From a bacterium (GTDB lineage Bacteria > Patescibacteriota > Dojkabacteria > SC72), in NCBI GenBank assembly GCA_017958745.1, contig JAGDCC010000034.1, positions 1 through 51,716 on the forward strand: a stretch of DNA of 51,716 nucleotides. The letters run 5' to 3'. The translations under genes and the position numbers were made by a program. Every line of letters starts with the position of its first letter. Position 1 is the first letter of the stretch. This document shows, one piece after another, positions 14,228 to 47,770 of the stretch. The notes below the pieces were generated by a model. The model worked only from the letters and a program-made list of their open reading frames with translations, did no database searches and was not told the DNA's origin.

Positions 14228-14373
14228 TATTTCAGGTTTTTCTAAATATCCCTTATTATTTTTCCACTTCTCTACAAATTTTTTGTTTTATTCTATAGAT
14301 TTCTGTATATCTTCTTTTATCTGGGGATCTTCTAAATCCTTATAAAGAAGTTCTAGATTCCATGTGTTTTGCA

Positions 14374-14568: not shown

Positions 14569-14664
14569 ATTGTTTCTCCTATTAAATTAATTCCTTAATG
14601 ATAACATTATCTCTTTTTATACGCTATATATGAGTAATATATGAAATGAGAGTATGTACTGAAA

Positions 14665-14673
14665 TGTTATAAT
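14665..14673 (+). promoter_or_regulatory. Extended -10 element (TGTTATAAT), 6 nt before the ABC-transporter ATG
   Basis: The spacing predicts a leaderless or near-leaderless mRNA, and no SD is present. Confidence 0.4.
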
Positions 14674-14679
14674 TGTAAT

Positions 14680-16485: not shown

Positions 16486-16553
16486 ATTTTTTCTATTTGC
16501 ATTTGTTTAGATAATTTGTAAAAATACACTGTTAAGTTTTTTTATAAAAAATC

Positions 16554-16751
16554 ATGAAAGTATCTCTAGATAAAAGCAAATGTATGGTATGTGGTTCCTG
16601 TGTAGGTTTGTGTCCAGCTGTCTTTGAAATGGCAGGTGATGGGACTATTGATGTTAAGAAAGAAATGAAGGATGTTCCAAGTAAATTGGAAGGAGATGTA
16701 CAAAGTGCGGCAGATGCTTGCCCAGCAACAGCTATTACAGTAGAGAAGTAG
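16554..16751 (+). CDS. Small single-cluster ferredoxin
   Basis: 65 aa with CMVCGSCVGLCPAVFE ... ADACPATAI. Confidence 0.85.
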   Translation: MKVSLDKSKCMVCGSCVGLCPAVFEMAGDGTIDVKKEMKDVPSKLEGDVQSAADACPATAITVEK

Positions 16752-17348
16752 ATGGTAAAAACACATCCAGAAAAGATTCTTTGCATAAAGGAATCTATCC
16801 TTTTTGGTAAAGAAAAATGGAATGGTCTAAAGACTGATGACTTGTCCTATTATAAGGATTTGGTGGAGGATAATATGGAGTTTATATGTAGAGATGATTT
16901 AGAAAATGATCCAACATATAAACAGGTTATAGCACAAGTTGTCCTTAGGTATAAAGGAAAATATTTTCTACATAGACAGGTAAATAGGGGAGAAAAGAGA
17001 CTTAATTCTTTGTGTCCTCTTCCTTTTGGTGGACATATTGAGCTTTTTGACAAATCTTCCAATGGAGATATTATCGAAGTGGCTCTAGAAAGAGAGTTGC
17101 ATGAGGAGGCAGAGGTAAATGCTAATATTGTGGATAAAACATTTTTAGGTCTTGTATATATTGAGGACGACAATCCTGTTAATTATGTACATGTAGGTTT
17201 TGTCTATGTCTTTGATTTGGATGGAGATGATGTCCATGTTAGAGAAGAGGGTTTGGAAACAATAGGCTTTGTAGATGTAGAGTATTTACAAGAACATGTA
17301 GAAGAACTAACCTATTGGTCTAGATTTATTATTCCTTATTTAAAATAA
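16752..17348 (+). CDS. NUDIX-family hydrolase
   Basis: Nudix-box-like GGHIELFD...VALERELHEEAEV. The ATG directly abuts the ferredoxin stop (TAGATG). Confidence 0.75.
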   Translation: MVKTHPEKILCIKESILFGKEKWNGLKTDDLSYYKDLVEDNMEFICRDDLENDPTYKQVIAQVVLRYKGKYFLHRQVNRGEKRLNSLCPLPFGGHIELFDKSSNGDIIEVALERELHEEAEVNANIVDKTFLGLVYIEDDNPVNYVHVGFVYVFDLDGDDVHVREEGLETIGFVDVEYLQEHVEELTYWSRFIIPYLK

Positions 17349-17362
17349 TTATTTAAACACCT

Positions 17363-17791
17363 ATGAAGAGATGTTATATAGATGGCTGTGTATTTTGCAA
17401 AATATTAAATGGAGAGATACCTAGCTACAAAATTTTTGAGGATGATTTCTTCTGCGCTATCTTAGATATAAATCCAATTAGTAAAGGGCATGTGTTAGTT
17501 TTCCCAAAGGAGCATTATGTGGATATTATGGATATACCAGATAATATTCAGTCTAGAATGTATATTCTAGTAAAAAAACTTACTGCGCATATAGATCATG
17601 TATATAATCCAGAAGGTTTTGTTATTAACCAAAATAATGGTGAGGCTGCTGGACAATGTGTTCCGCATATACATGTGCATATAAAACCTATTTATAAGGA
17701 CACAGAGATACCAGAGGAGGAGAGTTATAGACACCAATATTCTGATGAAGAGATGAAAAAAATATATGAAGATTTGGCTTTAGTAGAATAA
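17363..17791 (+). CDS. HIT-family (histidine triad) nucleotide hydrolase/transferase
   Basis: CVFCKILNGEIPSYKIFEDD, GHVLVFPKEH and the histidine triad VPHIHVHIKP. Confidence 0.85.
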   Translation: MKRCYIDGCVFCKILNGEIPSYKIFEDDFFCAILDINPISKGHVLVFPKEHYVDIMDIPDNIQSRMYILVKKLTAHIDHVYNPEGFVINQNNGEAAGQCVPHIHVHIKPIYKDTEIPEEESYRHQYSDEEMKKIYEDLALVE

Positions 17792-17876
17792 TTTAATTAC
17801 AATTTGTTTTATTCTATTGGGTCATTTGCTATAATGAGAAACTGTCTATTTTATTTAAATTCTAATTTTTATAATA

Positions 17877-18821
17877 ATGTCTAGAAGGAGTAAAAGAAAA
17901 AATTCCAAGAAGAGAGAAGAGATAGAAGAAGAGGTTATAGAAGAGGAGGCTATTGATGAGGTTAGTGAGGAAGAGGAGGAAGTAGATGATAGTGTAGAAG
18001 AAGAGATAGAAGAGGAGGATGAAAAGAAAGAAGATGATGCTGAGGAGGAAGAAGAAGAGGAGAAGGAAAGTGATGTGAAGGAGATAACAATAGATATGAG
18101 TACATGGGGTATTCCTATTGCGATTATTATTGCAGGCATTATTATCGCATTAGCTGTGTATTTCTCTAATAAATCTAGAACGGATACATCTAGTACATAC
18201 AATAATTCTGGTACACAAACAGTAGATAATAACAATAATGATAGTGGAAATAAGGATAATGGTTCTTTATCCATTAATATAGATGGAGATCCATATCTTG
18301 GAACTCTTGAGAATGGAAAAGTTGCAATGGTGGAGTTTACAGATCCATTCTGTGGATATTGCAAGAGATTTCATACACAAACATTTGATAGTATAAAGAA
18401 GGATTATATTGATACAGGTAAAATAATTTATGTATACAAGGAGTTCCCATTGACAAATGATAAGGAATCTCTTAGATATCATTTGGTAGAAGGTGGTGAG
18501 TGTGTTTACCGTCTTACAAACAATACAGAAGCATTTGTTAAGTTCCATGGAGGTGCTTTTGATGTAGAGTCTGAGGATGGAATGAGAACATTAGCTGAAT
18601 CTACAGGTGTAGATATGACAGCATTTAATGAATGTATCAGTAATCATACATACGCTTCTGAAGTTTCTAAAGATTCTGAAGAGGGTCAGAATCTTGGTAT
18701 TTCTGGTACACCGTCTTTCTTGATTGGAAAGGTAGATGCTAATGGAAAGATTACAGGAACAGTAACTGTTGGTGCTTTATCTTATTCCTCTTTCCAAAGT
18801 AAGTTGGATGCGCTATTATAA
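17877..18821 (+). CDS. Membrane-anchored DsbA-like thiol:disulfide oxidoreductase with a strongly acidic N-terminal tail
   Basis: About 70 N-terminal residues are mostly Glu/Asp, followed by a TM helix (GIPIAIIIAGIIIALAVYF) and the thioredoxin-fold active site FTDPFCGYCKRFH. Confidence 0.8.
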   Translation: MSRRSKRKNSKKREEIEEEVIEEEAIDEVSEEEEEVDDSVEEEIEEEDEKKEDDAEEEEEEEKESDVKEITIDMSTWGIPIAIIIAGIIIALAVYFSNKSRTDTSSTYNNSGTQTVDNNNNDSGNKDNGSLSINIDGDPYLGTLENGKVAMVEFTDPFCGYCKRFHTQTFDSIKKDYIDTGKIIYVYKEFPLTNDKESLRYHLVEGGECVYRLTNNTEAFVKFHGGAFDVESEDGMRTLAESTGVDMTAFNECISNHTYASEVSKDSEEGQNLGISGTPSFLIGKVDANGKITGTVTVGALSYSSFQSKLDALL

Positions 18822-18841
18822 TAGAGAACGGCACTAAAAAA

Positions 18842-18875
18842 GGAGAGTGGGTAGCAATACCCACTTTTCTTTTTT
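18842..18875. terminator. Bidirectional rho-independent terminator between the convergent DsbA-like gene and proS
   Basis: AGTGGGTA - GCAA - TACCCACT (8 bp, extendable with G-U/A-U pairs), flanked by AAAAAA upstream and TTTCTTTTTT downstream. Confidence 0.7.
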
Positions 18876-18898
18876 ATATAGATACTTTATAAATTGAA

Positions 18899-20329
18899 TT
18901 AATACTGTATTCCCCAAACTACATGATACTTTGCTGGTTTGCCACAACAGACACATTTACCATCAATAAGAGGTTCATCTTCTAGAATACATCTTGCTTT
19001 ACATCCTTTAATCTCTTTAATTCTTTCTTCGCAATGCTGATCTCCACACCAATCTCCATGTATAAATCCAGGATGCTCATTTAGAATCTTTTCCATATCT
19101 TCTAAATTGTGTGCAGTAAATGTGAGCTTATCTCTTCTCTCTACAGCTCTGTTGTACATATCCTGCTGTATTGTTTCTAGTAAGTTTGTTATGTATTTAA
19201 TAATGTCTGTGTTCATATCTACGGATATCTTTTCTCTTGTATCTCTTCTAACGAGAGTTAGAGTGTTGTTCTTAATATCTCTTTCTCCAATCTCTATTCT
19301 TACAGGAATACCAAGGACCTCCGCTTCTGCAAATTTAAATCCAGGAGTCTTATCTGTTCTATCTACCTTAACAGAAATGGATTGCTCTCTAAGTTTAGTC
19401 TCCAATTCTTCTACCTTATTGTTAACAACATCGCTGTTACCAATAGGAATAATAATAACCTTTGTAGGAGCAATTCTAGGTGGTAGAACAAGTCCAAAGT
19501 CATCACTATGTACCATAATGAGAGCTCCAATCATACGAGTGGTTGTACCCCAAGATGTCTGGTATACATACTCAAGTTTATTTTCTTTATTCAAGAATTT
19601 AACATCATAAGCCTTAGAGAATTTTTGTCCAAAAAAGTGGCTTGTACCAACCTGTAAACATACACCATTGTACATTAAGTCTTCGTTGGTTAGAGTGTAC
19701 TCTGCACCAGCAAATTTTTCTTTTTCTGTCTTTTTTCCTGTGATAGATGGAATTGCTAATATCTCATGATGGAACCATCTATATACTTCCATCATGAGAT
19801 CTGTTTCTTCTTCTGCTTCCTTTTTTGTAGCATGTATTGTGTGTCCTTCTTGCCACAAGAATTCTCTACTTCTAAGAAATGGTCTTGTCTCTTTCTCCCA
19901 TCTTAATACATTACACCATTGGTTATATAACATAGGTAAATCTCTGTATGACTTTACAGCATCTTTATAATAATCCGAAAAAAGAGTCTCACTAGTTGGT
20001 CTAACACAGAATCTCTCGTCTAATTCTTTCGAACCACCCTCTGTCACCCAAGCGACTTCTGGAGCAAAACCTTCTACTAATTCACTTTCTTTTCTTAATA
20101 ATCCCTCTGGAATTAACAATGGCATTGAAACGTTCTGGTGCCCAAGCTCTTTAAACTTCTCATCTAGAATTTTCTGCATATTCTCCCAAATAGCGTATCC
20201 ATTAGGTAATATTGCGATGCATCCTTTAACACCTGTGTAACTAGATAGATGTGCGGCATTAACAACATCTGTATACCACTGTGCGAAATCTACATCTCTA
20301 GAAGTTATTTCTTTATTATCCTTTTCCAT
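18899..20329 (-). CDS. proS: Prolyl-tRNA synthetase, archaeal/eukaryote-like architecture (no INS editing domain, C-terminal Cys-rich domain ending in Tyr)
   Basis: 476 aa with class II motifs (FCVRPTSETLF, WGTTTRMIGALIMVHSDDFGLVLPPRIAP) and a C-terminal GDWCGDQHCEERIK...CVCCGKPAKYHVVWGIQY. Confidence 0.93.
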   Translation of the reverse strand: MEKDNKEITSRDVDFAQWYTDVVNAAHLSSYTGVKGCIAILPNGYAIWENMQKILDEKFKELGHQNVSMPLLIPEGLLRKESELVEGFAPEVAWVTEGGSKELDERFCVRPTSETLFSDYYKDAVKSYRDLPMLYNQWCNVLRWEKETRPFLRSREFLWQEGHTIHATKKEAEEETDLMMEVYRWFHHEILAIPSITGKKTEKEKFAGAEYTLTNEDLMYNGVCLQVGTSHFFGQKFSKAYDVKFLNKENKLEYVYQTSWGTTTRMIGALIMVHSDDFGLVLPPRIAPTKVIIIPIGNSDVVNNKVEELETKLREQSISVKVDRTDKTPGFKFAEAEVLGIPVRIEIGERDIKNNTLTLVRRDTREKISVDMNTDIIKYITNLLETIQQDMYNRAVERRDKLTFTAHNLEDMEKILNEHPGFIHGDWCGDQHCEERIKEIKGCKARCILEDEPLIDGKCVCCGKPAKYHVVWGIQY

Positions 20330-20418
20330 GGTTGATATTGTACCATAAATGAATGTAAATGGTATATAATAACGTTGTTCCTTACAAATTGAAAATTATT
20401 CATCCATGGAGGTGCAGA

Positions 20419-20898
20419 ATGAATAATGTAAACATAACGATGTTTAAAGATCCAAGAAACTTGGATTTTATTAGTGGTTTTATCGGTAAGTCAAATGGAG
20501 CAGTATTGTCTTATGAGTCCAAAATGGACGATGAGTTCGAGTTTCATTTTGATATAAATAATGGGTTATTTGATGTATCTGTTTGTAGAAAAGCACTGTC
20601 TTTCCAAGTTCAAACAAATTACTTGTCGGAGAAATTACCGAACTACGATAAGGTCTATTTTGATATCTTTCGCAGTATTTCCTCCACTTGGAGTTATAAG
20701 GCATATGGTTGTCGGAAGAACTCTAATGGTAAATATGATTGTAGTTTGTTAGATTTGAAAACACTGCTTGGAGAAGATAGTGAGAAGGTTGCTGTTTCTA
20801 GCAAATCATTGACTCTTCCTACGGGGAAGTTAGAGTGGCTGATTACTACGAACTATATAGCACAATTTTTGCTTTTAGATTTTGTAGCAACCTATTAA
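20419..20898 (+). CDS. Hypothetical protein (159 aa from ATG 20419; the track ORF begins at 20359)
   Basis: GGAGG (20408..20412) lies 6 nt upstream of ATG 20419. The track start at 20359 falls inside a TGGTATATAAT promoter-like element. I recognised no family. Confidence 0.5.
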   Translation: MNNVNITMFKDPRNLDFISGFIGKSNGAVLSYESKMDDEFEFHFDINNGLFDVSVCRKALSFQVQTNYLSEKLPNYDKVYFDIFRSISSTWSYKAYGCRKNSNGKYDCSLLDLKTLLGEDSEKVAVSSKSLTLPTGKLEWLITTNYIAQFLLLDFVATY

Positions 20899-34101: not shown

Positions 34102-34755
34102 TTAATTATTGGTATCACATACTACTACACCATTTTTGCATTCGCAGACTTTGTTGTCGCTAGAGCTAAATACTGCATCGTTTGCATATAGATGGTTATT
34201 GTAATAGCACGTATTTAGGTTTATTAATGTACCATCTTCTGCTTTGTAATATGTAGTCAAATCCTTACCGTTTTCTGTTTGTTTTGTTAAATCTATATCT
34301 GTTATCTTGAAATAATTAGAAACGACACATGGTTGTGTATATACGGATGGATTATCGTTTGTTACTACTTTAAGTATGAGGTTGCCGTTATCTAATTTAT
34401 AAAAACCAGCTTGAGATGGAAGCTCTTTATTATCTGTACAAAGGGCTTCTCTTTCTAAAACAATAGATACCGTATTGTCTTTGTAAGAGATATTTGTTGT
34501 CGTAATCTTAGATTTATTTATAGTCTTTCTTTCCAATACACTTAGGTATTTGAATGTAAAATCTAAGTTATTTGTAACGAATGATCCATCTGATGCGTCT
34601 ATGATGTTGTCATCTGTCATTTTTTTGTTATTATCACTCTCTTTATTATCTTTAAACAACCCAGACTGTAGTATTACTACTACAGAAAGTAAGCCGACTA
34701 AAGAGAATGTTATAAATAGTAGCCAATTCCGATGTGCATACTCTCTATTTTCCAT
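34102..34755 (-). CDS. Membrane-anchored extracytoplasmic protein of unknown function, multiple Cys
   Basis: 217 aa with an N-terminal TM helix (WLLFITFSLVGLLSVVVIL) and six Cys residues, including a C-terminal CECKNGVVVC. Confidence 0.55.
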   Translation of the reverse strand: MENREYAHRNWLLFITFSLVGLLSVVVILQSGLFKDNKESDNNKKMTDDNIIDASDGSFVTNNLDFTFKYLSVLERKTINKSKITTTNISYKDNTVSIVLEREALCTDNKELPSQAGFYKLDNGNLILKVVTNDNPSVYTQPCVVSNYFKITDIDLTKQTENGKDLTTYYKAEDGTLINLNTCYYNNHLYANDAVFSSSDNKVCECKNGVVVCDTNN

Positions 34756-36788: not shown

Positions 36789-39700
36789 ATGCAATGGCCT
36801 AATAAAATTAGCAAAAAGGAGTTCTTATTATTGTTCTCTGTATTATTGATTTTTCCAGTTTTTATTTTCTATGCTTTTTTTTCTAAATCTTTTGTGACTA
36901 GTACTAAAGCAGACTCTACACAGAGTTTACCTGCGTCTATTTCTTTTGCTGATTTAAACTCTGACTCAAGAATTAGTATATCTGACTTTACTATTTGGTT
37001 AGGATATTATTCTCAATTTGCAAAATATGATAAATATAATGCTGATGGAGATTTTAATGATGATAGAAGGATATCTATTTCTGATTTTAGATTATGGTTA
37101 GATGCATATCTCTCATATGCGAAAGGCACGTATACGCAATTTGGACCTGGAGATGATACGACAAATCTGTGTGAATCTGGAGATACTTTAACAAGATGCT
37201 TAGTATATGCAGATACTGGAACAAGAGATTATAGTACAGCTATTACTACAATAAAGAATAAAGCTGCAAGAGACTTTTCTACTGTAGCAACAACAGATGA
37301 GGGATTACATGCTACACCAGATTATTCTAGTGTAAGTGCAACAACATTAGATGGAACAAGTTATTATTTCAGAGGAGCAGTAGAAGATAACTGGGTAAGT
37401 TTTGCAGGGTTCTTGTGGAGAGTTGTAAGGATAAATGGCGATGGAAGTATAAGGTTGGTTTACAGTGGAACAACAAATAACCATACTGGAGCAGGTGTAC
37501 AAATCGGAGTATCCGAATATAATGAGAGTAATGAGAATTCAACGGGGGCTGGTTATACGTATGGTGATAATACAGATAGTACAATAAAAAGTGTTGTTGA
37601 CTCTTGGTATGAGAATAATATAAGAAATAATTATGAAAAATATTTAGCGAATGAAATCTTTTGTAATGATAGGAGTATCGGAGAGACGGATGAAGACTTA
37701 ATATATTATGGAGCTTTCACAAGGTTTGTTTCTAACAATGCTACTCCAAGTTTGCAGTGTGTTAATAAGGCTGATATGTATACATTAGGTACATCTGGTT
37801 CGGGTAATGTCTCTGGAATTGATGGTGCCGGTAATAATAAATTAAAATATCCTGTAGGATTATTAAGTGTTGATGAGATTTCTTTTGGTGGTTGTGCGTT
37901 TACTGATGATAAGGCAAACTCTTATCTTTGTCCTGGAAACGATTATTGGCTTATCTCACCATTGGCATTGAGTTCTAGTGGTGTTCCTGTTATGTACATT
38001 GCAAGTGATGGTTATATTAGTGTAGCGCTATTGGAAGAAGAACTTGGTGTACGTCCAGTAATAAACCTTAAATCAGATGTTTTGTATTCTAGTGGTAATG
38101 GGACAGTGAATAATCCATATGAAATACAAGATGGCATGCATAATATTACGACGCCAATTATTACGTTGAGTTCTACAGAAGGAACAGTTGGTATAGGTAG
38201 TACCATAACATTCATAGCTACTGTCTCTAGTGGTGTAGAGGATAGTATTTCTGGTACATTAACAGTAAGTAGTAGTGATACAACGATGGCAAGTGTAGAT
38301 TCAACAATTAAGAATGTAACAGCAACTCCAAATGGGGCAGAATCTACTATAACAATAACAGGTATATCAGAGGGAGTTAGTACAATAACTGTTGGTTTTA
38401 GTCCTACGGATATTACACATTATGCAGATGCAATAGGTAAAACATATACTGTAACTGTTGAATCTGGAGTGAGTGAGCAAATGGCAACAATTCCAACAGC
38501 AACAGATTATTGTCACACAGGATTAGTGTATACAGGTAGTAGTCAAACATTAACTAAAACAGAAGGCGAAGGTTATATATTTAGTGATAATGAAGGCACA
38601 GATGCAGGAAATTATACTGTAACAGCAACATTGGAAGATGGTTACATATGGAATGACAATTCTACAGAAGCTAAAACTGTTATATGTAGTATTGAAAAAT
38701 ATGCTCCAACCATAACCTTAAGCGCTGAAGAGGAAACATTAGAATTAGGTAATACAACAACATTTACAGCTGTTGTAGTATCGAGTGTGTCGTCTGGTAC
38801 TGCAGGTGATTTAGTAGTAGAAAGTGGAGATTCCACAATCGCAACAGTTAATCCAACTAATGCTAGTATTACAGCAACTCCAAGTGGTATTGATACTGTG
38901 GTAACAGTAACTGGTGTGTCAGAAGGAGTTAGTACAATAACAGTTGGTTTTACTCCAACAGATACGACCAATAACACCAATGCAACAAGTAAAACATATA
39001 CTGTAACTATTGGCACTGCAGTAGGTGAGCAGATAGCAACAATTCCAACAGCAACGGATTATTGTCAAACGGGATTAGTTTATACAGGTAGTAGTCAAAC
39101 ATTAACTAAAACAGAAGGAGTTGGTTATACATTTAGCAATAATGAAGGCACGGATGCAGGGGATTATACTGTATCTGCGACATTAGAAGAGGGTTATGTA
39201 TGGACGGATAGTAGTACGGAAGAGAAGACATTTATTTGTAGTATAGATAAAGTGACTCCAACAATAACATTAAGTTCCGATGAAGGAACTGTTGAAGAAG
39301 GTAATGAGATAACATTTGTTGCTACTGTAACATCTGGTGGCGTATCTGAACTAGCAGGAACATTATCTGTCGAGAGTGGAGATACTAGTATTGCAACGGT
39401 AGATCCAACGAGTAAAGATATTACAGCAATAGTAAGTGGAACATCTACAACTATAGCAATAACTGGATTGGTAGCAGGTAGCAGTACAATTACAATTAAA
39501 TTTACTCCAGACAGCATTACAAACTACAATAGTCCAGAGAGTAAGACATTTGATGTAGATGTAACAGAAAGTACACCTCAAGAACTTCAGACTCCAACGA
39601 TTACTTTAAGTTCGACAGAAGGAACAGTAGAATTGGGAAATACTGCTTCATTTACAGCTACAGTATCTTCTGGAGGAACATCTAATATAGAAGGAACATT

Positions 39701-40943
39701 AACGGTAAGCAGTGGAGATACAAATAAGGCAACTGTATCTCCAGAGAGTACTGCTGTAACAGCTATACAGTCTGGTGTTGCAACAACTATAACAGTAGCG
39801 GGAGTAGCAGTAGGTAGTAGTACAATAACAGTGAGTTTTGTACCAACAGACACAACCAACTTTAATAGTGCAGATAATAAAACATATACAGTAACAGTAA
39901 ATGCGGCAGCTTCTGTTCCAACTTTGGCAGAGAAAATTATTATGGATGACCAAGGAGCATCTAGTTATAGTGGTTCTCTATTAACAGCAATACGTAATAA
40001 AACTGCTAGAGATTTTTCTACAACAGCAACTACAGATGAGGGATTGCATGCAACAGCAGACTATGCAAGTCCGAATGCGACATCTTTAAATGGATATAGT
40101 TATTATTTTAGAGGTGCTGTAACGGACAACTGGGTGAGTTTTGCAGGATTCCTATGGAGAATAATAAGAATAAATGGAGATGGAAGCATAAGAATGATTT
40201 ATAGCGGAACGACAAGTAACCATACAGGAGCAAATACACAAATAGGAACTTCTATGTTTAAGTCAGATATAGAGGAAGAAGATAGTAAGGAAAAGTTTGT
40301 AGGTTATATGTTTAAGACTACTTCTGACAATGATACAGATAGTACTATTAAAACTGTAATTGACACTTGGTATGAGAACAATTTATTAACTAATTATGAA
40401 GCTTATCTAAGTGATTCTGGATTCTGTGGAGATAGAACAGTAGAACACACAATAAATTCTGACGAAGTCGTTATCCCAACTGATACTCATATAATCAATT
40501 ATTACGGAGGATTTAATAGAACAATTCTTAACTCTACACCAACATTAAAATGTTCTAATTTATCTAGAGATATGTATACATTAAAAATATCAGGTGAAAG
40601 CAGTATAGCTGGAACAAGTGGTTATGGAAATAATGCTTTAAAGTACCCAATTGGTCTATTAACAGCTGATGAGGTTGCATTTGCTGGAGGGCATCCAACA
40701 GAAAATAATAGTAATTATTATCTGTATAATGGACAAATTGATTGGTTAATTTCTCCAGGGGCCTATGATGAATACTACAATGTATCGGATAATATGGATG
40801 TAAATATCAAAGGAATAATTAGTGGTTTTAATGTAGATTTAGGAGAATATGGTGTGAGACCAGTTATAAATCTAAAATCTAATGTTAAGTACGGTAGTGG
40901 GAGTGGAACAGAAAATGATCCATATGTTGTACAATTACTATAA
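36789..40943 (+). CDS. 1384-aa secreted multidomain surface protein: leader + dockerin-like module + unknown ~300-aa domain (copy 1) + 4 Ig-like repeats with 2 interleaved beta-domains + unknown domain (copy 2)
   Basis: Leader MQWPNKISKKEFLLLFSVLLIFPVFIFY...SFVTSTKA. Dockerin-like loops DLNSDSRISISD and DFNDDRRISISD (36951..37109). The duplicated domain is marked by YYFRGAVEDNWVSFAGFLWRVVRINGDGSIRLVYSG / YYFRGAVTDNWVSFAGFLWRIIRINGDGSIRMIYSG and GVRPVINLKS. Confidence 0.85.
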   Translation: MQWPNKISKKEFLLLFSVLLIFPVFIFYAFFSKSFVTSTKADSTQSLPASISFADLNSDSRISISDFTIWLGYYSQFAKYDKYNADGDFNDDRRISISDFRLWLDAYLSYAKGTYTQFGPGDDTTNLCESGDTLTRCLVYADTGTRDYSTAITTIKNKAARDFSTVATTDEGLHATPDYSSVSATTLDGTSYYFRGAVEDNWVSFAGFLWRVVRINGDGSIRLVYSGTTNNHTGAGVQIGVSEYNESNENSTGAGYTYGDNTDSTIKSVVDSWYENNIRNNYEKYLANEIFCNDRSIGETDEDLIYYGAFTRFVSNNATPSLQCVNKADMYTLGTSGSGNVSGIDGAGNNKLKYPVGLLSVDEISFGGCAFTDDKANSYLCPGNDYWLISPLALSSSGVPVMYIASDGYISVALLEEELGVRPVINLKSDVLYSSGNGTVNNPYEIQDGMHNITTPIITLSSTEGTVGIGSTITFIATVSSGVEDSISGTLTVSSSDTTMASVDSTIKNVTATPNGAESTITITGISEGVSTITVGFSPTDITHYADAIGKTYTVTVESGVSEQMATIPTATDYCHTGLVYTGSSQTLTKTEGEGYIFSDNEGTDAGNYTVTATLEDGYIWNDNSTEAKTVICSIEKYAPTITLSAEEETLELGNTTTFTAVVVSSVSSGTAGDLVVESGDSTIATVNPTNASITATPSGIDTVVTVTGVSEGVSTITVGFTPTDTTNNTNATSKTYTVTIGTAVGEQIATIPTATDYCQTGLVYTGSSQTLTKTEGVGYTFSNNEGTDAGDYTVSATLEEGYVWTDSSTEEKTFICSIDKVTPTITLSSDEGTVEEGNEITFVATVTSGGVSELAGTLSVESGDTSIATVDPTSKDITAIVSGTSTTIAITGLVAGSSTITIKFTPDSITNYNSPESKTFDVDVTESTPQELQTPTITLSSTEGTVELGNTASFTATVSSGGTSNIEGTLTVSSGDTNKATVSPESTAVTAIQSGVATTITVAGVAVGSSTITVSFVPTDTTNFNSADNKTYTVTVNAAASVPTLAEKIIMDDQGASSYSGSLLTAIRNKTARDFSTTATTDEGLHATADYASPNATSLNGYSYYFRGAVTDNWVSFAGFLWRIIRINGDGSIRMIYSGTTSNHTGANTQIGTSMFKSDIEEEDSKEKFVGYMFKTTSDNDTDSTIKTVIDTWYENNLLTNYEAYLSDSGFCGDRTVEHTINSDEVVIPTDTHIINYYGGFNRTILNSTPTLKCSNLSRDMYTLKISGESSIAGTSGYGNNALKYPIGLLTADEVAFAGGHPTENNSNYYLYNGQIDWLISPGAYDEYYNVSDNMDVNIKGIISGFNVDLGEYGVRPVINLKSNVKYGSGSGTENDPYVVQLL
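38151..39926 (+). repeat. Intragenic tandem repeats: 2 x 552 bp followed by 2 x 336 bp units
   Basis: Unit starts (PxITLSS codon CCA) are at 38154, 38706, 39258 and 39594. Units 1 and 2 also contain an ~80-aa ATIPTATDYC(H/Q)TGLVYTGSSQTLTKTEG...GTDAG(N/D)YTV module. Identical runs reach 38 nt (tatacaggtagtagtcaaacattaactaaaacagaagg). Confidence 0.85.
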
Positions 40944-40965
40944 TTGTAAATAATAGACAAAGTAT

Positions 40966-40979
40966 CTACAATATTGTAG
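40966..40979. promoter_or_regulatory. Perfect 14-bp palindrome CTACAATATTGTAG upstream of the 41016 gene
   Basis: It lies 37-50 nt upstream of ATG 41016. It could be an operator or could occur by chance in AT-rich DNA. Confidence 0.25.
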
Positions 40980-41015
40980 GATTTATATTAATATCTAATA
41001 TAGTGCATAGAAGAA

Positions 41016-43199
41016 ATGAAATGGACAAATAAAATAAGTAAAAGCGATTTTATATTACTAGCTTCTGTGCTATTAATTCTTCCTGCTATTGTTTTCTATA
41101 CGGTAAATTCTGATTCTTTTGAGACAAGAAGCCAAGCAGAAACAACAGAGACTTTGCTAGATAGTATATCATTTGCTGATTTAAATGATGATAATCAAAT
41201 TAGCATAACAGATTATGCTATTTGGGTAGAATATTATGTTGATTTTGCTAAAAATGGGAAGTTGAATTCCTCATGTGATTTTAATGGTGATGGTAGAATA
41301 TCTATTGCTGATTTTAGCAAATGGTTGGAAGCATATATCTCATATGTGAGAGGGTCATATATAGTATCTAAGAGAGAGAATCCTGTCGTTGTTAAATTAA
41401 ATCCTAATTATTCTGAAAATGATACTGCCTTGGTTGTTGTAGAAGATGCTAAAGGAGAAGTTTATTTTAGTATAGATACAGAATTAACAGCTCTCAATTA
41501 TGAAACAGCTGGATCTACAGTCATTCCAACTGGCAATGGAAAAGGAGGCTATAGAGTATATTGGTATTGTACTGGGAATGATAACTATTATTCTAAGAGG
41601 GGAGAAGTAGTTTTAGAGGAGGAACATATTAAGCCAGAGGTGAGTGCTGGTTCCATTAAAAAGGATAATGAAGTAACTTTAGTTGAAAATAAGTGTGGTA
41701 GTTGTATGCATGACACATATCCTGAAGATCACGCAATAGAGCCAGAGATACCGTCATCGCAATTGCTTACTGCTAGTTGTCCATCTGTATGTCAGACTGT
41801 ATATGATGCAGCGTATAGTACATCAACATTTGGTAACAAAAAGATTACAAGGGATAAAATTGAAAAAATATATACAGTTAAAGAGGTAGATGTTCCAGCA
41901 GATGCTAAAGAATCATGGGATGTTTCAGAGAAAAAAGACAAGTCTGTTGTTGCGTATGTCTTAGATAAAGATTCGAATGGCTTGTATGAGCTCTATCTAG
42001 GGGAGAATGGAGGAGTTATTGCTAACCAAGACAGTAGTCGAATGTTTGAAAATTATACATCTTTAACATATGCAGATTTAACAAATCTTTATACAGACAA
42101 TGTTACTGATATGAGCTTTATGTTCAAGGGTGATAATAAATTAAGCCAGTTGATTATTAATGGGTGGAATACAACGGCTGTTACAAATATGAAGTATATG
42201 TTTAAGGATTGTTCTTCTCTTTCATCTTTAGACCTGAATCATTTTGATACTTCCTCTGTAACAGATATGGAAGGTATGTTTTATGGTTGTATATCCATGA
42301 AATCTTTAGAAGTGGAAAAATTTAATCTTACAAATGTTAAGACAATAGAGGCAATGTTTATGAATTGCAATAAGCTTTCCAAATTAAACATTGAAAACTG
42401 GAACACAGCAAATATATCAAAAATTAGCAAGTTGTTTGCTAATTGTAAATCTCTAACTAGTATTTCCATAGGGAAATGGGATACATCACGTGTAGATGAT
42501 ATGTCTGCATTGTTTTATGGTTGTAAGTCATTATCGAATATAGATATCGGAAGTTGGGATGTATCGAATGTAACAGATATGTCTGGTTTATTCTTTGATT
42601 GCTCTTCTGTGAAATCATTGTCATTAAGTAAGTGGAATGTAGGTAATGTTAAATGGCTTTCTTACATGTTTTATGGATGTAAGTTGTTAACAGAGATAAA
42701 AATAAATAATTGGGATGTTAAAAACGTCGTAAATATGAATGGACTATTTAAAGGTTGTAAGGCTCTAGAAACTATTTCACTAAATAAATGGAAGACATCT
42801 AGTGTATCTGGGTATGGTATGGATAGTGTTTTTGAGAATTGTGAATCGTTGACGACACTGGATTTGAGTAACTGGAATACTTCTAACGTAGAAAGTATGA
42901 GTAAAGTATTTCGTGGTTGTAGTTCATTAACGACATTAAATATTTCTGGTTGGAATACTGCCAAAGTACTGGTTATGGAAGATATGTTTTATGGATGTGC
43001 ATCTTTGAAAACTATTTATGCGAGTAATTCTTTTGTCACAAAAGGACTCTTCTCTGATTTAGATTTAGAAGAAAATATGTTTAAAGGTTGTAAGAGTTTA
43101 GTTGGAGGTAATGGAACCAAGTATTCTTCCTCCCACATGGGCAAAGAATATGCAAGGATAGATACAGCTTCTAAGCCTGGATATTTCACAAGTAAGTAA
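41016..43199 (+). CDS. Secreted BspA-type leucine-rich-repeat surface protein (26-residue repeat / DUF285-like) with N-terminal dockerin-like module
   Basis: The leader is colinear with the 36789 protein (A41 and D55 at identical positions). Dockerin-like loops DLNDDNQISITD and DFNGDGRISIAD (41178..41336). About 11 repeats of W(N/D)TSxVTxMxxMFxGCxSLxxLxLxx follow. The C-terminal end FKGCKSLVGGNGTKYSS...ARIDTASKPGYFT is typical of this family. Confidence 0.85.
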   Translation: MKWTNKISKSDFILLASVLLILPAIVFYTVNSDSFETRSQAETTETLLDSISFADLNDDNQISITDYAIWVEYYVDFAKNGKLNSSCDFNGDGRISIADFSKWLEAYISYVRGSYIVSKRENPVVVKLNPNYSENDTALVVVEDAKGEVYFSIDTELTALNYETAGSTVIPTGNGKGGYRVYWYCTGNDNYYSKRGEVVLEEEHIKPEVSAGSIKKDNEVTLVENKCGSCMHDTYPEDHAIEPEIPSSQLLTASCPSVCQTVYDAAYSTSTFGNKKITRDKIEKIYTVKEVDVPADAKESWDVSEKKDKSVVAYVLDKDSNGLYELYLGENGGVIANQDSSRMFENYTSLTYADLTNLYTDNVTDMSFMFKGDNKLSQLIINGWNTTAVTNMKYMFKDCSSLSSLDLNHFDTSSVTDMEGMFYGCISMKSLEVEKFNLTNVKTIEAMFMNCNKLSKLNIENWNTANISKISKLFANCKSLTSISIGKWDTSRVDDMSALFYGCKSLSNIDIGSWDVSNVTDMSGLFFDCSSVKSLSLSKWNVGNVKWLSYMFYGCKLLTEIKINNWDVKNVVNMNGLFKGCKALETISLNKWKTSSVSGYGMDSVFENCESLTTLDLSNWNTSNVESMSKVFRGCSSLTTLNISGWNTAKVLVMEDMFYGCASLKTIYASNSFVTKGLFSDLDLEENMFKGCKSLVGGNGTKYSSSHMGKEYARIDTASKPGYFTSK
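42045..43020 (+). repeat. Coding tandem array of about 11 x 78-nt (26-residue) LRR units
   Basis: I hand-counted the units (for example WDTSRVDDMSALFYGCKSLSNIDIGS and WDVSNVTDMSGLFFDCSSVKSLSLSK). One unit is 28 aa. Confidence 0.8.
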
Positions 43200-43231
43200 C
43201 TCTTGTATATATAGACTTTGCTATTAAAATA

Positions 43232-43864
43232 CTAATGTCTTTTCTTTCTAGTGGGAATTATTGCGACTATAACGGTAGCTAATCCTATAATACTTGCAAC
43301 AATCAGTAATGTGTATATTTGATGTTCTATAAGAAAGTTCTTAACTCTATCTAGAAAACTTTTATTCTCTGTTTGGTTTGCTTTGGCAATTGAAATGCCT
43401 TCGTCGTGAATAGTTTCAGAACGAACAATATTCACTGGCTTATTTATGTCACTAATTGCGTACTCTAAATTACCAATATCTAAGGATTCTGTATCAATAT
43501 AGAAATAATAATCATCAAATCCATTATTAACATAATTGATTGTTGCAAATGTTCCAGATGCACTTGTGTTGTCATCGTTGAAGCATTCTATGGAGATAGT
43601 ATTGTTATTAACTTTAATATCTTCACCAACTTGACACATATTTTCAGCAATAACGATATCATCTTCGGTTATTTCTAAATTCTCAGAGTAATGTATCTTA
43701 ATATCTATAGCTGGAAGATAAACGTTAGTATCGCTATCTACAATAAGATCTACAGTATTATTTTCATTCTCGATAAGCATTATATCTGTTGCAGCAAGCA
43801 AATAGTTCTTGGAAAGAAACAATAATGATAAGGTGAATAATAATATAATCCTCTTTGATTTCAT
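43232..43864 (-). CDS. Membrane-anchored cohesin-like domain protein (putative dockerin receptor)
   Basis: Signal peptide MKSKRIILLFTLSLLFLSKNYLLAA, then a ~140-aa beta-rich domain. Its landmarks LPAIDIKIHYSENLEITEDDIV and SGTFATINYV parallel cohesin segments I recall (IANCDFVYSYDPNVLEIIEI, GVFATIVAKV). The C-terminal TM helix ends in RKKRH. Confidence 0.5.
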   Translation of the reverse strand: MKSKRIILLFTLSLLFLSKNYLLAATDIMLIENENNTVDLIVDSDTNVYLPAIDIKIHYSENLEITEDDIVIAENMCQVGEDIKVNNNTISIECFNDDNTSASGTFATINYVNNGFDDYYFYIDTESLDIGNLEYAISDINKPVNIVRSETIHDEGISIAKANQTENKSFLDRVKNFLIEHQIYTLLIVASIIGLATVIVAIIPTRKKRH

Positions 43865-43971
43865 GATTACAGAAACTCATTTTATACTTCTTTTATAAAA
43901 ATAGCAGATTAAATTGATTATTTCCACAATTAAAGGTATTCTTTTATAGGATTAATTGATGGTTAAATCAC

Positions 43972-45792
43972 ATGGTATCTTTTAGCTTAGGAAAGAAGAA
44001 AAGAGCTTTTATAGCAGTGTTTGCATTTATGCTTTTGACTCCATTAATTATTTTCTACAGTACTTCTGATAACAACTTTGATACTAGAAGTAGTGCAGCT
44101 AATTCTGATTCTTTACCTAAAAATCTTAAATCTGCAGATTTAAATGCAGATGGGAAAGTTACAATTTTGGATTACAACATCCTGCTTGAAGCTTATCGTA
44201 ATTTTGTATCGAAGTCTGTATATTCTAAATCTTATGATTTTAATAACGATGGAAAAATTAACTATCTAGATATTGCAGAATGGCAGAACAAGTATGAGAA
44301 GTATAAACTTTGGCTCGCTAACCAAAATATTGAAGAGGTTGCTATTACATACCAGGGGGAAGAAGTAAGCAAGTTGGTATTAAAGAAAAAAAGTGCACAA
44401 TTGGGAACTACTTTTACGAATGGTGAAAAAGTAACATGGTCAAGTAGAAATCCTTTTGCCATTACAGTCGATAATAACGGTAAAATACAACTTGTTGGAG
44501 AACCTGGAGAGAAAGCTACTATAGATGCAGTAAGTAGTTCTGGTGCAGAAGCTAGTGTTTTAGTTGTTATAGATGGAGAACCCTCTGGAGCTGTTACGTA
44601 TGGAGGAAAAGTTTTTGATGGTACTGTTAGAAATATTAGCTTGGAAGAAGGATTTTCTGCACAACTTGGAACAACATTTAGTAATTGCAGTAATTTGACA
44701 TGGACGAGTAGAAATTTGTCTGTAGTTACTATTGATAATAAGGGTAAATTATCAGTAAAAGGGGAGGAAGGTAGATATACCTATGTTTATGCAACATGTG
44801 ATTCAAATAGAACACCACAGGTAAGAATTAATGTTACTAAGAAGACTGATTCAAACGGTCTTACTCTTAATAAGACATCTGGTACTATTTATTTGAATTC
44901 TTCTAATCCTAAAGTTTTCTTAAAAGCTACAACTACAAATGGAAAGGAGATTACATGGTCTAGTAGTAATACTAATGTCGCAACTGTAAATAAAAATGGG
45001 AAGGTAACGGCGAAAGCAGTTGGAACAAGTAAAATTATTGCAAAAGCAGGAGATTTAACTGCTACTTATGATCTTACAGTTAAACAAAAAATTATTATTA
45101 TTGTTGGTGCTTCTCAGGTTGGTAGAATGAAAAAGAATGTTTCAAGTTATGAATCTGGTAATTACTTATATCAGAAAAGCGATAATACTTTGAAGATAAT
45201 TGCAGAAGGAGGTACTGGATTTGCTTATCAACTACCTGGTGGTGCTGGTTTTGATTCTATGTATTTATTCATGACTGGTTATTCATCTGTCAAAAAGTAT
45301 ATTGAGTTTTATGTTTATTTCCCTATCGCTGGAAATGGTGTTACACGTTATACTTGTAAAAAATTGACAAACTCGAATAGTGACATTAGCGGTTATATGG
45401 AGAATTATAGCTCTACTATGGCATCCTTAGCGAAAGAATCTTACCAGGTTAAGACATATCTTGTTAGTATCCAACCTGTGGCTCCAGAACAATGTACAGA
45501 TGCTGAATGTACAGCTGTTGAGAGTAATGATCCTAATGCTTGCAAATCTGGTTATAGATCTAATATCAAATATTATACTTATAATAAGCTTATGGAAGAA
45601 TTCCTGAAGAACTACAATAATCTAACATATGTTGAAACATTTAAGAAAATAATGAATGTTAATGAATCTACTAATGAGTTTACTTATAAGAAGGGTGTTA
45701 AATATGTAACTGACCAACATGGTATTCATTGGGATGAGAAAACAACCGTCTATTATGTAGGCTTAATGCTGGAATCTAACACAGAGTTATAA
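43972..45792 (+). CDS. Secreted protein: leader + dockerin-like module + three Big_2-type Ig domains + unknown C-terminal (possibly SGNH-like) domain
   Basis: Leader ends ...PLIIFYSTSDNNFDTRSSA. Dockerin-like loops DLNADGKVTILD and DFNNDGKINYLD (44137..44295). Big_2 signatures VTWSSRNPFAITVDNNGKIQL, LTWTSRNLSVVTIDNKGKLSV and ITWSSSNTNVATVNKNGKVTAKAVGTSKIIA. Confidence 0.85.
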   Translation: MVSFSLGKKKRAFIAVFAFMLLTPLIIFYSTSDNNFDTRSSAANSDSLPKNLKSADLNADGKVTILDYNILLEAYRNFVSKSVYSKSYDFNNDGKINYLDIAEWQNKYEKYKLWLANQNIEEVAITYQGEEVSKLVLKKKSAQLGTTFTNGEKVTWSSRNPFAITVDNNGKIQLVGEPGEKATIDAVSSSGAEASVLVVIDGEPSGAVTYGGKVFDGTVRNISLEEGFSAQLGTTFSNCSNLTWTSRNLSVVTIDNKGKLSVKGEEGRYTYVYATCDSNRTPQVRINVTKKTDSNGLTLNKTSGTIYLNSSNPKVFLKATTTNGKEITWSSSNTNVATVNKNGKVTAKAVGTSKIIAKAGDLTATYDLTVKQKIIIIVGASQVGRMKKNVSSYESGNYLYQKSDNTLKIIAEGGTGFAYQLPGGAGFDSMYLFMTGYSSVKKYIEFYVYFPIAGNGVTRYTCKKLTNSNSDISGYMENYSSTMASLAKESYQVKTYLVSIQPVAPEQCTDAECTAVESNDPNACKSGYRSNIKYYTYNKLMEEFLKNYNNLTYVETFKKIMNVNESTNEFTYKKGVKYVTDQHGIHWDEKTTVYYVGLMLESNTEL

Positions 45793-45868: not shown

Positions 45869-47770
45869 ATGTCAGACCAAATTAATAAAGAAAATATAAG
45901 AAATATTGCAATAATTGCGCACGTAGACCATGGTAAAACTACATTGGTAGATGCCTTTATGAAACAATCTCATCTATTTAGAGAGAATCAAGAAGAAATG
46001 TCAGAGACACAAATCCTAGATTCTGGAGACTTAGAAAGAGAAAAAGGTATTACCATTAGTGCAAAGAATATATCTATTGTATATAAAGGAACAAAGATAA
46101 ATATCATAGATACACCAGGACACGCAGATTTTGGAGGAGAAGTAGAAAGAACATTAAATATGGCAGACAGTTGTTTACTCTTGGTAGATGCTAAAGAAGG
46201 ACCAATGCCACAGACAAAGTTTGTGCTAAAAAGAGCATTAGAATTAGGTCTAAAGCCTGTTGTTGTTATTAATAAGATAGATAAGAAGTTAGCAAATATA
46301 CCTAAGACAATATCTAAAATACAGGATTTATTCTTAACATTAGCAACAGATGAATCTCAGTTAGAGTTTCCAATATTCTATGCAATTGCAAGAGAGGGAA
46401 AAGTATGGACAGAAGTACCACAAGGAGATTTAACAAATTCTGCAAATATAGAAGGAGATTTAACTCCTTTGTTGGAAGAAATAGTAAATAATCTACCATG
46501 TCCAAGTGGAGACGAAACAAAACCGTTACAGATGCAGATTACATCTATTGAGTTTAATGAGCATCTAGGTAGATATCTTATTGGTAAAATACACAATGGT
46601 ACTGTTAAGATAGATGATCCAATTATAATTGTATCTAATAAAGAAGATTTTGAGAAAAAACAGGGACGTGTTAAAGAATTATTTGTAAAGAAAGGATTAG
46701 AGTGGGAGGCAGTAAAACAGGCTAGTGCAGGAGAAATAGTAGCTATAACTGGTATAGATTCCACAGATATCGGTGCAACTATATGTAGTCTAGATTTCCA
46801 GGAACCATTACCAGAAATAAAGATTACACCTCCATCTGTGAGAATTAAGTTTGCAGCAAATACATCTCCATTTATGGGTAAAGAAGGTAAGTTTGTTACT
46901 GCAAAACAATTACAACAGAGATTAGAACAGGAAAAGAAGTTAAATATTAGTTTAGAAATAACAAATCGTGGGGGAGAAGGATACTTTGTAGCAGGTAGAG
47001 GAGAGTTACAGTTATCTATATTGGCAGAACAGCTAAGAAGAGAAGGTTATGAATTTGAAATAGGTAAACCAGAGGTTATCTTACAGGAAATAGATGGTAT
47101 TAAGTGTGAACCTATGGAGGAGCTTACAATAGATGCACCAGAGGAGTATTTAAGTGTTATTACACAAGAAGTTAATGAGAGAAATGGTAAGCTTATCAAT
47201 ATAGAAACAGAAGATGGAAATAATAGATTTACATTTAATATCCTAACAAGAAATCTTATTGGTTTACATAGAGTCTTGATGAGTGCTACTAAGGGTATGG
47301 CTGTAATAAATAGCTATATTGTAGATTATGTTCCTTATGACAAATCTATATCCTTGTTTAGAAAGGGTGTTATTATCTCCTCTGAAACAGGTACAGCATT
47401 GGATTATGCACTTAATGAAATACAAGATAGAGGTAAGTTATTTATAACGGGATCTACAGAAGTCTATGAGGGTATGATTATTGGAATAAATAACCATGAG
47501 AACGATTTAGATGTAAATCCATGTAAAGCAAGACATAAGACAAATGTAAGAATGTCTCATGCAGAAGTAACACAGATAATGCTTAAAGCACCCGTACAGC
47601 TTACAATAGAGTTTGCATTATCCTTTATTAATGATGATGAATTAATAGAAGTAACTCCTAAGAATATCAGATTGAGAAAGAAACTTCTTACAGAAACACA
47701 AAGAATATGGTCTAAGAGAAAGACTCTTACATATTATGCAAAAGAACATCTAGGGGATAATACCATTTAG
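45869..47770 (+). CDS. typA: Translational GTPase TypA/BipA
   Basis: IRNIAIIAHVDHGKTTLVDA, DTPGHADFGGEVER and NKIDK motifs, 633 aa, with an EF-G-like domain order and a BipA-type C-terminal domain. Confidence 0.95.
   Translation: MSDQINKENIRNIAIIAHVDHGKTTLVDAFMKQSHLFRENQEEMSETQILDSGDLEREKGITISAKNISIVYKGTKINIIDTPGHADFGGEVERTLNMADSCLLLVDAKEGPMPQTKFVLKRALELGLKPVVVINKIDKKLANIPKTISKIQDLFLTLATDESQLEFPIFYAIAREGKVWTEVPQGDLTNSANIEGDLTPLLEEIVNNLPCPSGDETKPLQMQITSIEFNEHLGRYLIGKIHNGTVKIDDPIIIVSNKEDFEKKQGRVKELFVKKGLEWEAVKQASAGEIVAITGIDSTDIGATICSLDFQEPLPEIKITPPSVRIKFAANTSPFMGKEGKFVTAKQLQQRLEQEKKLNISLEITNRGGEGYFVAGRGELQLSILAEQLRREGYEFEIGKPEVILQEIDGIKCEPMEELTIDAPEEYLSVITQEVNERNGKLINIETEDGNNRFTFNILTRNLIGLHRVLMSATKGMAVINSYIVDYVPYDKSISLFRKGVIISSETGTALDYALNEIQDRGKLFITGSTEVYEGMIIGINNHENDLDVNPCKARHKTNVRMSHAEVTQIMLKAPVQLTIEFALSFINDDELIEVTPKNIRLRKKLLTETQRIWSKRKTLTYYAKEHLGDNTI

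Follow-up and report, generated by a model that had tools for sequence, protein, structure and literature searches.

The ScaE cohesin of Ruminococcus flavefaciens is a single receptor domain fixed at the cell surface, where it holds the dockerin-bearing ScaB and the non-enzymatic, cellulose-binding CttA. The genes of this system are clustered, an LPXTG signal and sortase give ScaE a covalent link to the wall, and its partners carry C-terminal X-dockerins. Here we describe a locus of similar clustered layout in a 51,716-nucleotide (nt) stretch of bacterial DNA (hereafter the window; positions 1 to 51,716 of contig JAGDCC010000034.1, GenBank assembly GCA_017958745.1) from the SC72 lineage of Dojkabacteria, within the Patescibacteria or Candidate Phyla Radiation (CPR). 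Three large proteins of this locus begin with the same dockerin-like module behind a conserved leader, and a gene lying among them on the opposite strand encodes a protein of 210 amino acids (aa) with a cohesin fold and a predicted membrane anchor. We read the locus as a pared-down cohesin-dockerin docking system of divergent sequence at the dojkabacterial cell surface, at a probability of roughly 0.65, the binding of the two partners being the step that we infer. ScaE structures (4iu2, 8ajy, 9gvb, and 2zf9) are among the best fold matches of the 210-aa protein, which would likewise present a single surface-fixed cohesin domain. Unlike ScaE, this putative receptor has a predicted C-terminal transmembrane (TM) helix as its anchor, and LPxTG-type paralogs in other Dojkabacteria are closer to ScaE in this regard. 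In contrast to those of the ScaE partners, the window's dockerins are N-terminal and have no X module, and the receptor domain, at ~120 residues, is invisible to the Pfam Cohesin profile.

The two folds are likewise used outside cellulose degradation in NagH and NagJ of Clostridium perfringens (2ozn, 2jh2, 2w1n, and 2vo8) and in the Archaeoglobus fulgidus cohesin 2xdh. The C. perfringens modules lie inside large secreted glycoside hydrolases, whose complexes are soluble and lack a receptor gene dedicated to anchoring them in the membrane, and in A. fulgidus a single chain contains both a cohesin and a dockerin; neither system, unlike the window locus, comes from a CPR organism. A 2009 census by Peer, Smith, Bayer, Lamed, and Borovok reportedly found cohesin- and dockerin-like modules to be widespread in bacteria and archaea on non-cellulolytic cargo, where they may organize functions of other kinds; it is said to predate CPR genomes and to have relied on cohesins detectable by sequence, unlike the receptor family of the window. 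The amylosome of Ruminococcus bromii is another case of non-cellulolytic dockerin use, and its Amy12 is the second-best PDB sequence match of the third module described below.

In the ultra-small and probably host-dependent Omnitrophota, non-cellulosomal dockerins occur on giant extracellular proteins with a proposed role in attachment (bioRxiv 10.1101/2023.11.21.568195; PMC10066038). These proteins are membrane-anchored and gather many dockerin repeats in one chain, with no dedicated cohesin partner gene described, whereas the window locus has one N-terminal dockerin on each of several separate proteins and a linked gene for the partner fold. The N-terminal position, presented in the original prediction (made from the sequence without database searches) as a departure from textbook cellulosomes, holds throughout the window, although it is not unprecedented, as R. 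flavefaciens GH16_21 also has an N-terminal dockerin (PMC12484212). A survey of metagenome-assembled genomes (MAGs) from biogas systems placed Dojkabacteria among the CPR taxa predicted to be linked to carbohydrate degradation. Unlike a cellulosome, the window locus has cargo that is non-enzymatic by Pfam, and its receptor consists of one cohesin-fold domain, with no carbohydrate-binding module and no multi-cohesin scaffoldin. We found no description in the literature of the system outlined here, with Pfam-invisible mini-cohesins of TM and LPxTG type, a leader-dockerin tag, cargo of adhesin, lectin, and GH10 type, and several receptors per genome. It would extend a known principle, that of non-cellulosomal cohesin-dockerin pairs, to the CPR surface, with binding as the key inferred step.

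The four open reading frames (ORFs) of the locus have the positions and strands originally proposed (Table 1), and the gene of the 606-aa protein is divergent from that of the cohesin-fold protein. The largest protein (1384 aa) matches Pfam DUF6273 (3.5e-6); its DUF6273-like end domains (37249-37508 and 39988-40247) share 78% DNA identity, with tandem repeats of ~184 aa (552 nt) lying between them, within 38209-39767. Its ortholog at the corresponding locus of a related species (L001) has 1736 aa, 352 aa more than in the window, so the repeat number differs between species. The second protein is a strong match to DUF285 (7.8e-123), TIGR02167 (1.8e-81), and LRR_5 (2.4e-21). The third matches Big_2 (5.7e-14, with three stretches reported by Pfam), and its C-terminal 236 aa (45085-45792), which have no Pfam match and no PDB sequence match, are likely the functional tip of the protein. 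This Cys-containing globular region may be shared with certain Big_2 proteins that have no dockerin (P0057-P0061, 54-82% query coverage). The cargo is thus as originally described, with 26-residue PARCEL/DUF285 repeats in the second protein, Big_2 in the third, and tandem repeats in the giant protein, although the Ig-like character of the latter comes down to a sub-threshold Big_3_5 match (21.6 bits, cut-off 35.5).

Table 1. Positions of the features of the candidate docking locus in the window, and of LPxTG-type paralogs of the receptor in related loci.
Feature	Position	Strand	Basis and remarks
Dockerin-tagged giant surface protein, 1384 aa	36789..40943	+	ORF; leader, dockerin, DUF6273-like domain, tandem repeats, second DUF6273-like domain
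Conserved leader of protein 1, residues 1-41	36789..36911	+	Basic residues at the start, a hydrophobic run containing a conserved Pro and FY, and F-x-T-x-[ST]-x-A behind it
Dockerin-like module 1, residues 48-115	36930..37133	+	Loops at 36951 and 37050
Dockerin-tagged PARCEL/DUF285 (26-residue LRR-like) repeat surface protein, 727 aa	41016..43199	+	Pfam, TIGR02167
Dockerin-like module 2, residues 49-115	41160..41360	+	Loops at 41178 and 41277
Membrane-anchored (predicted) cohesin-fold protein, 210 aa; MBP5204456.1, J6Z48_02330	43232..43864	-	ORF, AlphaFold2, Foldseek
Predicted signal peptide, residues 1-24, putative cleavage at ...LLA/ATD	43793..43864	-	Near-invariant A24 ending the hydrophobic N-terminus (44 members)
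Cohesin-fold beta-sandwich, residues 25-145	43430..43792	-	Nine strands in the AlphaFold2 model
Tether, residues 146-181	43322..43429	-	pLDDT <50 at 149-165; poorly conserved columns
Predicted C-terminal TM helix, residues ~183-203, then tail TRKKRH	43256..43318	-	Hydrophobic stretch; AlphaFold2 helix 182-202; kept across the family
Dockerin-tagged Big_2 protein, 606 aa	43972..45792	+	Leader, dockerin, Big_2 repeats, 236-aa C-terminal domain
Dockerin-like module 3, residues 49-115	44116..44316	+	Loops at 44137 and 44236
LPxTG-type paralogs	L092:151-852; L093:1340-1972; L089:7-684; L086:3-488; L085:1-522; L096:5966-6568	- (all)	

The N-termini of the three large proteins align colinearly from the start codon, with invariant K10, P24, F28, Y29, F36, T38, and A42 in addition to the loop aspartates and the aromatic helices, and a hidden Markov model (HMM) of the leader recognizes that of protein 1 at E = 1.2e-20. 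By its sequence features the leader is probably a Sec signal peptide with a putative cleavage site. The proposal that the three tags act as recombination cassettes for swapping cargo was ruled out, their DNA identity being only ~70%.

Behind the leader, the same two-loop module is present in all three proteins, as had been claimed, with the loops at the expected starts (the span 36951..37109 runs from the first D to the last Y of module 1). Each module consists of two tandem segments of ~22 residues, in which a Ca2+ loop (D-x-[ND]-x-D, with D again at position 12) is followed by a helix. A six-frame motif scan located the six 12-residue loops, paired at a distance of 33 residues; it found paired loops in no further ORF of the 51.7-kb window, and three isolated single matches look like chance. 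An HMM of the module recognizes the three N-termini at E = 1e-32 to 1e-34, and the likeness between them is therefore not due to chance. Across organisms the module was recovered at E = 1e-13 to 1e-35, always at the N-terminus. The two segments are identical at 13/22 positions in module 1 and at 10/22 and 8/22 in modules 2 and 3, respectively, an internal symmetry typical of dockerins. Among Pfam families, Dockerin_1 (PF00404, gathering cut-off 22.9 bits) gave each of the three modules its highest score, with EF-hand families lower and all sub-threshold. Module 2 scored 27.6 bits within the whole protein and 32.5 bits in isolation (E = 9.6e-8), and module 3 scored 38.7 and 50.5 bits (E = 2.3e-13), all above the cut-off. 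Against PDB sequences, module 3 matched the dockerin 2y3n_B first and R. bromii Amy12 second, followed by troponin C.

The structure of module 3 was modeled with AlphaFold2 from an alignment of six sequences (mean predicted local distance difference test score, pLDDT, 95.7; predicted TM-score, pTM, 0.82). The model has two loop-helix units, each loop leading straight into its helix (19-35 and 52-72), and its top nine Foldseek matches in the PDB were all dockerins (2vn6_B, 4fl4_D, 2ozn_B, 2vn5, 6kgf/6kgc, 2y3n_B, and 3kcp), at root-mean-square deviations (rmsd) of 1.8-4.3 Å and target TM-scores (TMt) of 0.50-0.72 for isolated dockerin chains. Among the matches listed, the C. perfringens NagH dockerin 2ozn_B had the lowest rmsd (1.8 Å) and ranked third by E-value. 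Calmodulin, calpain, and polcalcin, in contrast, superposed on the model at 9-11 Å rmsd and TM ~0.27; in both the family scores and the fold, then, the choice between a dockerin and a generic EF-hand fell to the dockerin.

The 210-aa protein has the architecture originally described: a hydrophobic, signal-like helix at the N-terminus leads to a beta domain, and a second hydrophobic helix lies near the C-terminus, with RKKRH behind it. By this second helix the protein is predicted to be anchored in the membrane. In an exhaustive HMMER search the family came to 54 representatives (at 50% identity), which are mostly ~200 aa long and alike in layout; signal peptide, beta domain, TM helix, and basic tail are conserved in the family. 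Near-invariant C77 and C94 and the motifs ECFN, DYYFY, LDIG, and INKP are hallmarks of the family, and the net charge of the window's cohesin-fold domain is -21 against a family median of -17.5. The AlphaFold2 model (44-sequence alignment) has a mean pLDDT of 86, rising to 93-98 over residues 26-145, and gives, with nine strands, the cohesin-type sandwich on which the original prediction depended. All top 17 matches in a Foldseek search of the PDB were cohesins (E = 8e-6 to 1.2e-3, 16 of them at ≤1e-3; probability 1.00), led by the A. fulgidus cohesin 2xdh (E = 8e-6, TMt 0.60). They cover types I, II, and III as well as non-cellulosomal cohesins, including R. flavefaciens ScaE (4iu2_A, 9gvb, 8ajy), Clostridium cellulolyticum type I (2vn6_A, 1g1k), and C. 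perfringens (2jh2); pilins and CNA/CLIPPER-type adhesin domains rank below them. In a comparison of the family profile with PDB sequences, R. flavefaciens ScaB cohesins came out best, at marginal E-values (0.048, 0.065, and 0.53), and the homolog A0A101HJ70 of WS6 bacterium 34_10 carries the automatic name "Cohesin domain-containing protein" in UniRef. At the level of fold only, we thus consider the modeled domain to be a cohesin, and not one by sequence family; at ~120 aa it is also shorter than typical cohesins (~140-150 aa).

The linkage of tag and receptor was assessed in 8 non-redundant cohesin-like loci and in 80 BipA-anchored control loci of Patescibacteria (1.27 Mb), 1.45 Mb of DNA overall. 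A tagged gene lay within 10 kb of a receptor-family member in seven of the eight loci, representing six organisms, and in 0/80 control loci. The tag was confined to receptor-bearing loci, and the leader, as detected with its HMM, never occurred without a dockerin. Side-by-side dockerin and cohesin folds that recur across neighborhoods and organisms are hard to explain if the two are functionally unrelated. Locus L001, the orthologous one, keeps the liaF-like gene, the giant and DUF285 proteins, the opposite-strand receptor, the Big_2 gene, and bipA. It encodes four tagged proteins, the fourth of which (554 aa) has its dockerin behind a different, unrelated signal peptide, so that the dockerin, and not the leader, is the unit. 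In the scan anchored on BipA, an adhesin/receptor locus was found beside bipA only in the window and in L001 (0/80 control loci). A search of GTDB genomes with a narrow alignment of the receptor family found no related locus, and a search for homologous proteins with a 118-aa profile of the tag returned none, which we attribute to the limited sensitivity of so short a profile.

The MAG to which the window belongs (J6Z48) encodes at least three paralogous receptors (J6Z48_02330, J6Z48_01175, and J6Z48_03175), and the idea of several adhesins displayed on one membrane receptor is accordingly too simple. Two of the comparative loci, L082 and L090, come from this MAG and were not counted as independent lineages. 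In L082 the receptor paralog (J6Z48_01175, 38% identical) lies in a different neighborhood, amid rpsB, tsf, and radC, and the divergent pairing of receptor and dockerin-Big_2 gene is kept (module E = 5.5e-26), as it is in L001. Elsewhere the receptor adjoins a dockerin-Laminin_G_3 protein (L092, WS6 34_10; E = 2e-15), a tagged protein of 462 aa (L094; E = 4e-22), and a further tagged protein (L096/L097; E = 7e-19, Dockerin_1 24.5 bits). The tagged gene in L096 (7715-9073, minus strand) is apparently split from an 87-aa Laminin_G_3 fragment directly downstream (7357-7620, minus strand). The intact gene would have resembled that of L092, and a frameshift or faulty assembly may have split it, unless it is a pseudogene.

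In L095, a 621-aa protein (1695-3560, minus strand) joins the leader and an N-terminal dockerin tag (1e-13) to a GH10 xylanase (8.4e-58), 6.4 kb from the receptor gene. In some Dojkabacteria the tag therefore also carries enzymes; the contrast that the original prediction drew between adhesins and glycoside hydrolases applies within the window and breaks down in this relative, so that the wider family would also have a role in enzyme display. Directly upstream of the L095 receptor gene and divergent from it lies a gene for the RuBisCO large subunit (8347-9798, minus strand). Such genes are frequent in CPR genomes and unrelated to docking.

A second family comprises cohesin-like proteins of ~200-230 aa with weak similarity to the TM-anchored receptor (E = 1e-7 to 1e-11); at the C-terminus, its members have an LPxTG-like signal (LPETG, LPDSG, LPGTG, LPATG, or LPQT) and then a hydrophobic tail. 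The genes of these paralogs are almost always divergent from that of the TM receptor (L084, L085, L086, L089, L092, and L093, also L096). By their C-terminal signals they are probably sortase-anchored and would form a wall-attached second tier of cohesin-like proteins; the window itself has no LPxTG-type paralog and no sortase motif. Next to the receptor/dockerin pair of L082, a 572-aa protein (6449-8167, minus strand) combines a signal peptide with Big_2 and tandem repeats and with a true LPXTG anchor (Gram_pos_anchor 21.6 bits, above cut-off), and its C-terminal region resembles the cohesin-like paralogs by eye. In L090, the receptor paralog is the neighbor of a 2857-aa protein (1285-9858, minus strand) that lacks both a Pfam domain and a dockerin tag, and a run of unannotated genes (12432-20708) includes two LPQT-type cohesin-like paralogs and a VWA protein.

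In the docking scheme that we favor, the receptor would be exported via its classical signal peptide and become a type I membrane protein, with the TM helix followed by a basic cytoplasmic tail, and would present one highly acidic cohesin-fold domain on a tether of ~35 residues. The three large proteins would be exported by the conserved leader and cleaved at the [ST]-x-A site. Loaded with Ca2+, the dockerin of each would plug into the cohesin-fold domain, so that the protein would be held by its N-terminus while stalk and distal domains (tandem repeats with DUF6273, PARCEL/LRR, or Big_2 with the tip domain) would point outward. A tag at the N-terminus suits proteins with C-terminal binding domains and is the reverse of the arrangement in sortase-anchored adhesins. 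The portability of the tag, which is found on a GH10 xylanase, a Laminin_G_3 lectin-like protein, and other cargo, together with several receptor paralogs per genome, suggests a general device for non-covalent surface attachment. What is established in this scheme is the pair of folds, the order of the domains, the sequence features of the membrane anchor, and the linkage kept across loci.

Several observations weigh against the docking scheme. On the dockerin side, module 1 stays just under the Dockerin_1 cut-off (13.6 bits within the whole protein, 21.5 bits in isolation), so that Pfam bore out the predicted dockerins in modules 2 and 3 only, and several distant tags in relatives also escape this profile; module 1 is nevertheless tied to the other two by the lineage HMM (E = 3e-34) and by its 13/22 symmetry. 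The Foldseek E-values of module 3 (0.3-1.3) are non-significant alone, being weakened by the small size of the domain, and the case for a dockerin fold accordingly rests on the ranking and on the contrast with EF-hands. On the receptor side, the Pfam match that had been expected failed to appear, as Cohesin (PF00963) matches 0/44 family members at E ≤ 1, and an hhalign comparison between the family and P0118, a protein with a true Pfam cohesin, gave a probability below 1%; a search of the 210-aa protein against NCBIfam found no match, and phmmer of the single protein against the PDB returned noise only. Strand conservation is equal on the two sheets (0.53 vs. 0.51), with no focus on the 8-3-6-5 sheet, the one to which dockerins bind in true cohesins. 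At the sequence level, homology to cohesins is thus not established, and a convergent or generic beta-sandwich remains a candidate. As for the linkage, its significance (Fisher p = 1.3e-9) is indicative only, the controls having been chosen via BipA and not as a random genome sample, and L090, with receptor paralog J6Z48_03175, has no tagged neighbor, the only exception among the eight loci.

The leader may also be a membrane anchor in its own right, as suggested by a gap of ~13 residues between its hydrophobic core and the putative [ST]-x-A site. If it were an uncleaved signal anchor, the dockerin would meet the cohesin-fold protein in cis, where it would cluster, orient, or stabilize the adhesins or retain them after later processing, and would not be their sole anchor. 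The gap is long for the c-region of a signal peptide, the core itself is long at ~18-19 residues, leader and module are conserved as a pair, the leader HMM detecting none without a module, and the short tether of the receptor (~35 residues) would place the cohesin-fold domain near the membrane, as would be the case for an anchored dockerin. Small residues are conserved at -3 and -1 (S/T-x-A), however, in keeping with the signal-peptidase I rule, and the 554-aa protein of L001, with the same dockerin behind an ordinary-looking signal peptide, indicates that the dockerin works without the conserved leader. An anchored protein would also have less need of a dedicated receptor, yet the receptor gene is adjacent in six organisms. 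We therefore judge an uncleaved anchor to be unlikely, if still worth weighing beside docking of cleaved proteins.

Rather improbable, in our estimation, is that the genes are co-regulated surface genes whose products do not bind each other, the dockerin-like module serving as a calcium-dependent stabilizer or ligand binder and the 210-aa protein as an independent beta-sandwich or adhesin. The dockerins could then be directed at wall polymers, at glycans of a host surface, or at cohesins of a host or a neighboring bacterium, and the census of Peer et al. 2009 is said to include many non-cellulosomal dockerin-like modules with no identified cohesin partner. A beta-sandwich outside the Pfam cohesins, the presence of pilins and CNA/CLIPPER adhesin domains lower in the Foldseek list, and the L090 paralog with its untagged neighborhood would all fit such an arrangement. 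The fold ranking is specific, however, with 17 cohesins ahead of the first non-cohesin, and the two folds adjoin repeatedly in different neighborhoods and organisms. In bacteria, to our knowledge, neither the cohesin nor the dockerin fold is known to have a partner other than its counterpart.

Finally, the notion of ordinary EF-hand or thrombospondin-type sites arising by chance in a locus of unrelated surface proteins, to which sub-threshold EF-hand matches in Pfam and troponin C among the PDB sequence matches could lend some color, is effectively refuted by Dockerin_1, which outscores the EF-hand families for all three modules and alone exceeds its cut-off, by the fold search (dockerins at TM 0.5-0.72 and rmsd ~2 Å, EF-hands at ~0.27 and 9-11 Å), and by a module conserved across organisms in a constant N-terminal position.

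The locus is flanked by ordinary chromosomal genes (mraW, genes for penicillin-binding proteins, a GT4/MraY-like gene, tatD, pspC, a liaF-like gene, and bipA); bipA (45869-47770) lies directly downstream, and its product reaches 81% identity with BipA from MAGs of Candidatus Dojkabacteria (WS6). With these flanks and a G+C content of ~33% all along the window, there is no sign of a mobile element. A scan of the window for promoters and terminators was uninformative (39 sites vs. 48.8 expected, and 3 vs. 2.5 expected). Two genes upstream of the locus, an ORF of 217 aa (34102-34755, minus strand) with a TM helix at its N-terminus and a C-terminal region rich in Cys has no match in Pfam or NCBIfam. 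Farther away, the ORF at 17877-18821 (plus strand) encodes a DsbA/Thioredoxin_4-like protein with a CGYC motif, one TM helix, and an extremely acidic N-terminal region of ~70 residues. A weak HMM match that would have made it cohesin-like was rejected as spurious, the protein having a DsbA-like thioredoxin fold. It may supply disulfides to exported proteins such as the two-Cys receptor domain, and an oxidoreductase of this type in the window is consistent with the two conserved Cys of the cohesin-fold domain.

How CPR bacteria attach to hosts or substrates with very small genomes is largely an open question. For such cells, it would be economical to mount various adhesins and enzymes non-covalently, as modules, on a handful of small receptors, and the locus supplies concrete, testable proteins that bear on how they organize their surface. 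An attachment apparatus of episymbiotic CPR cells, in which adhesins and enzymes are exchanged on membrane- or wall-anchored mini-cohesins or, more boldly, dockerins plug into the cohesins of a host or neighboring cellulosome bacterium and so join cell to cell, is a long shot in our view. The sample labels of related contigs (XIEF21 and WILK20) may point to an origin in the ruminant gut, where cellulosome bacteria are common. If binding holds true, the cohesin-fold domain of ~120 residues and its 70-residue partner could provide a compact, orthogonal docking pair for protein engineering. The receptor family (~54 clusters at 50% identity) is missed by censuses based on Pfam Cohesin because it is invisible to that profile, and cohesin-dockerin systems may thus be under-counted in candidate phyla.

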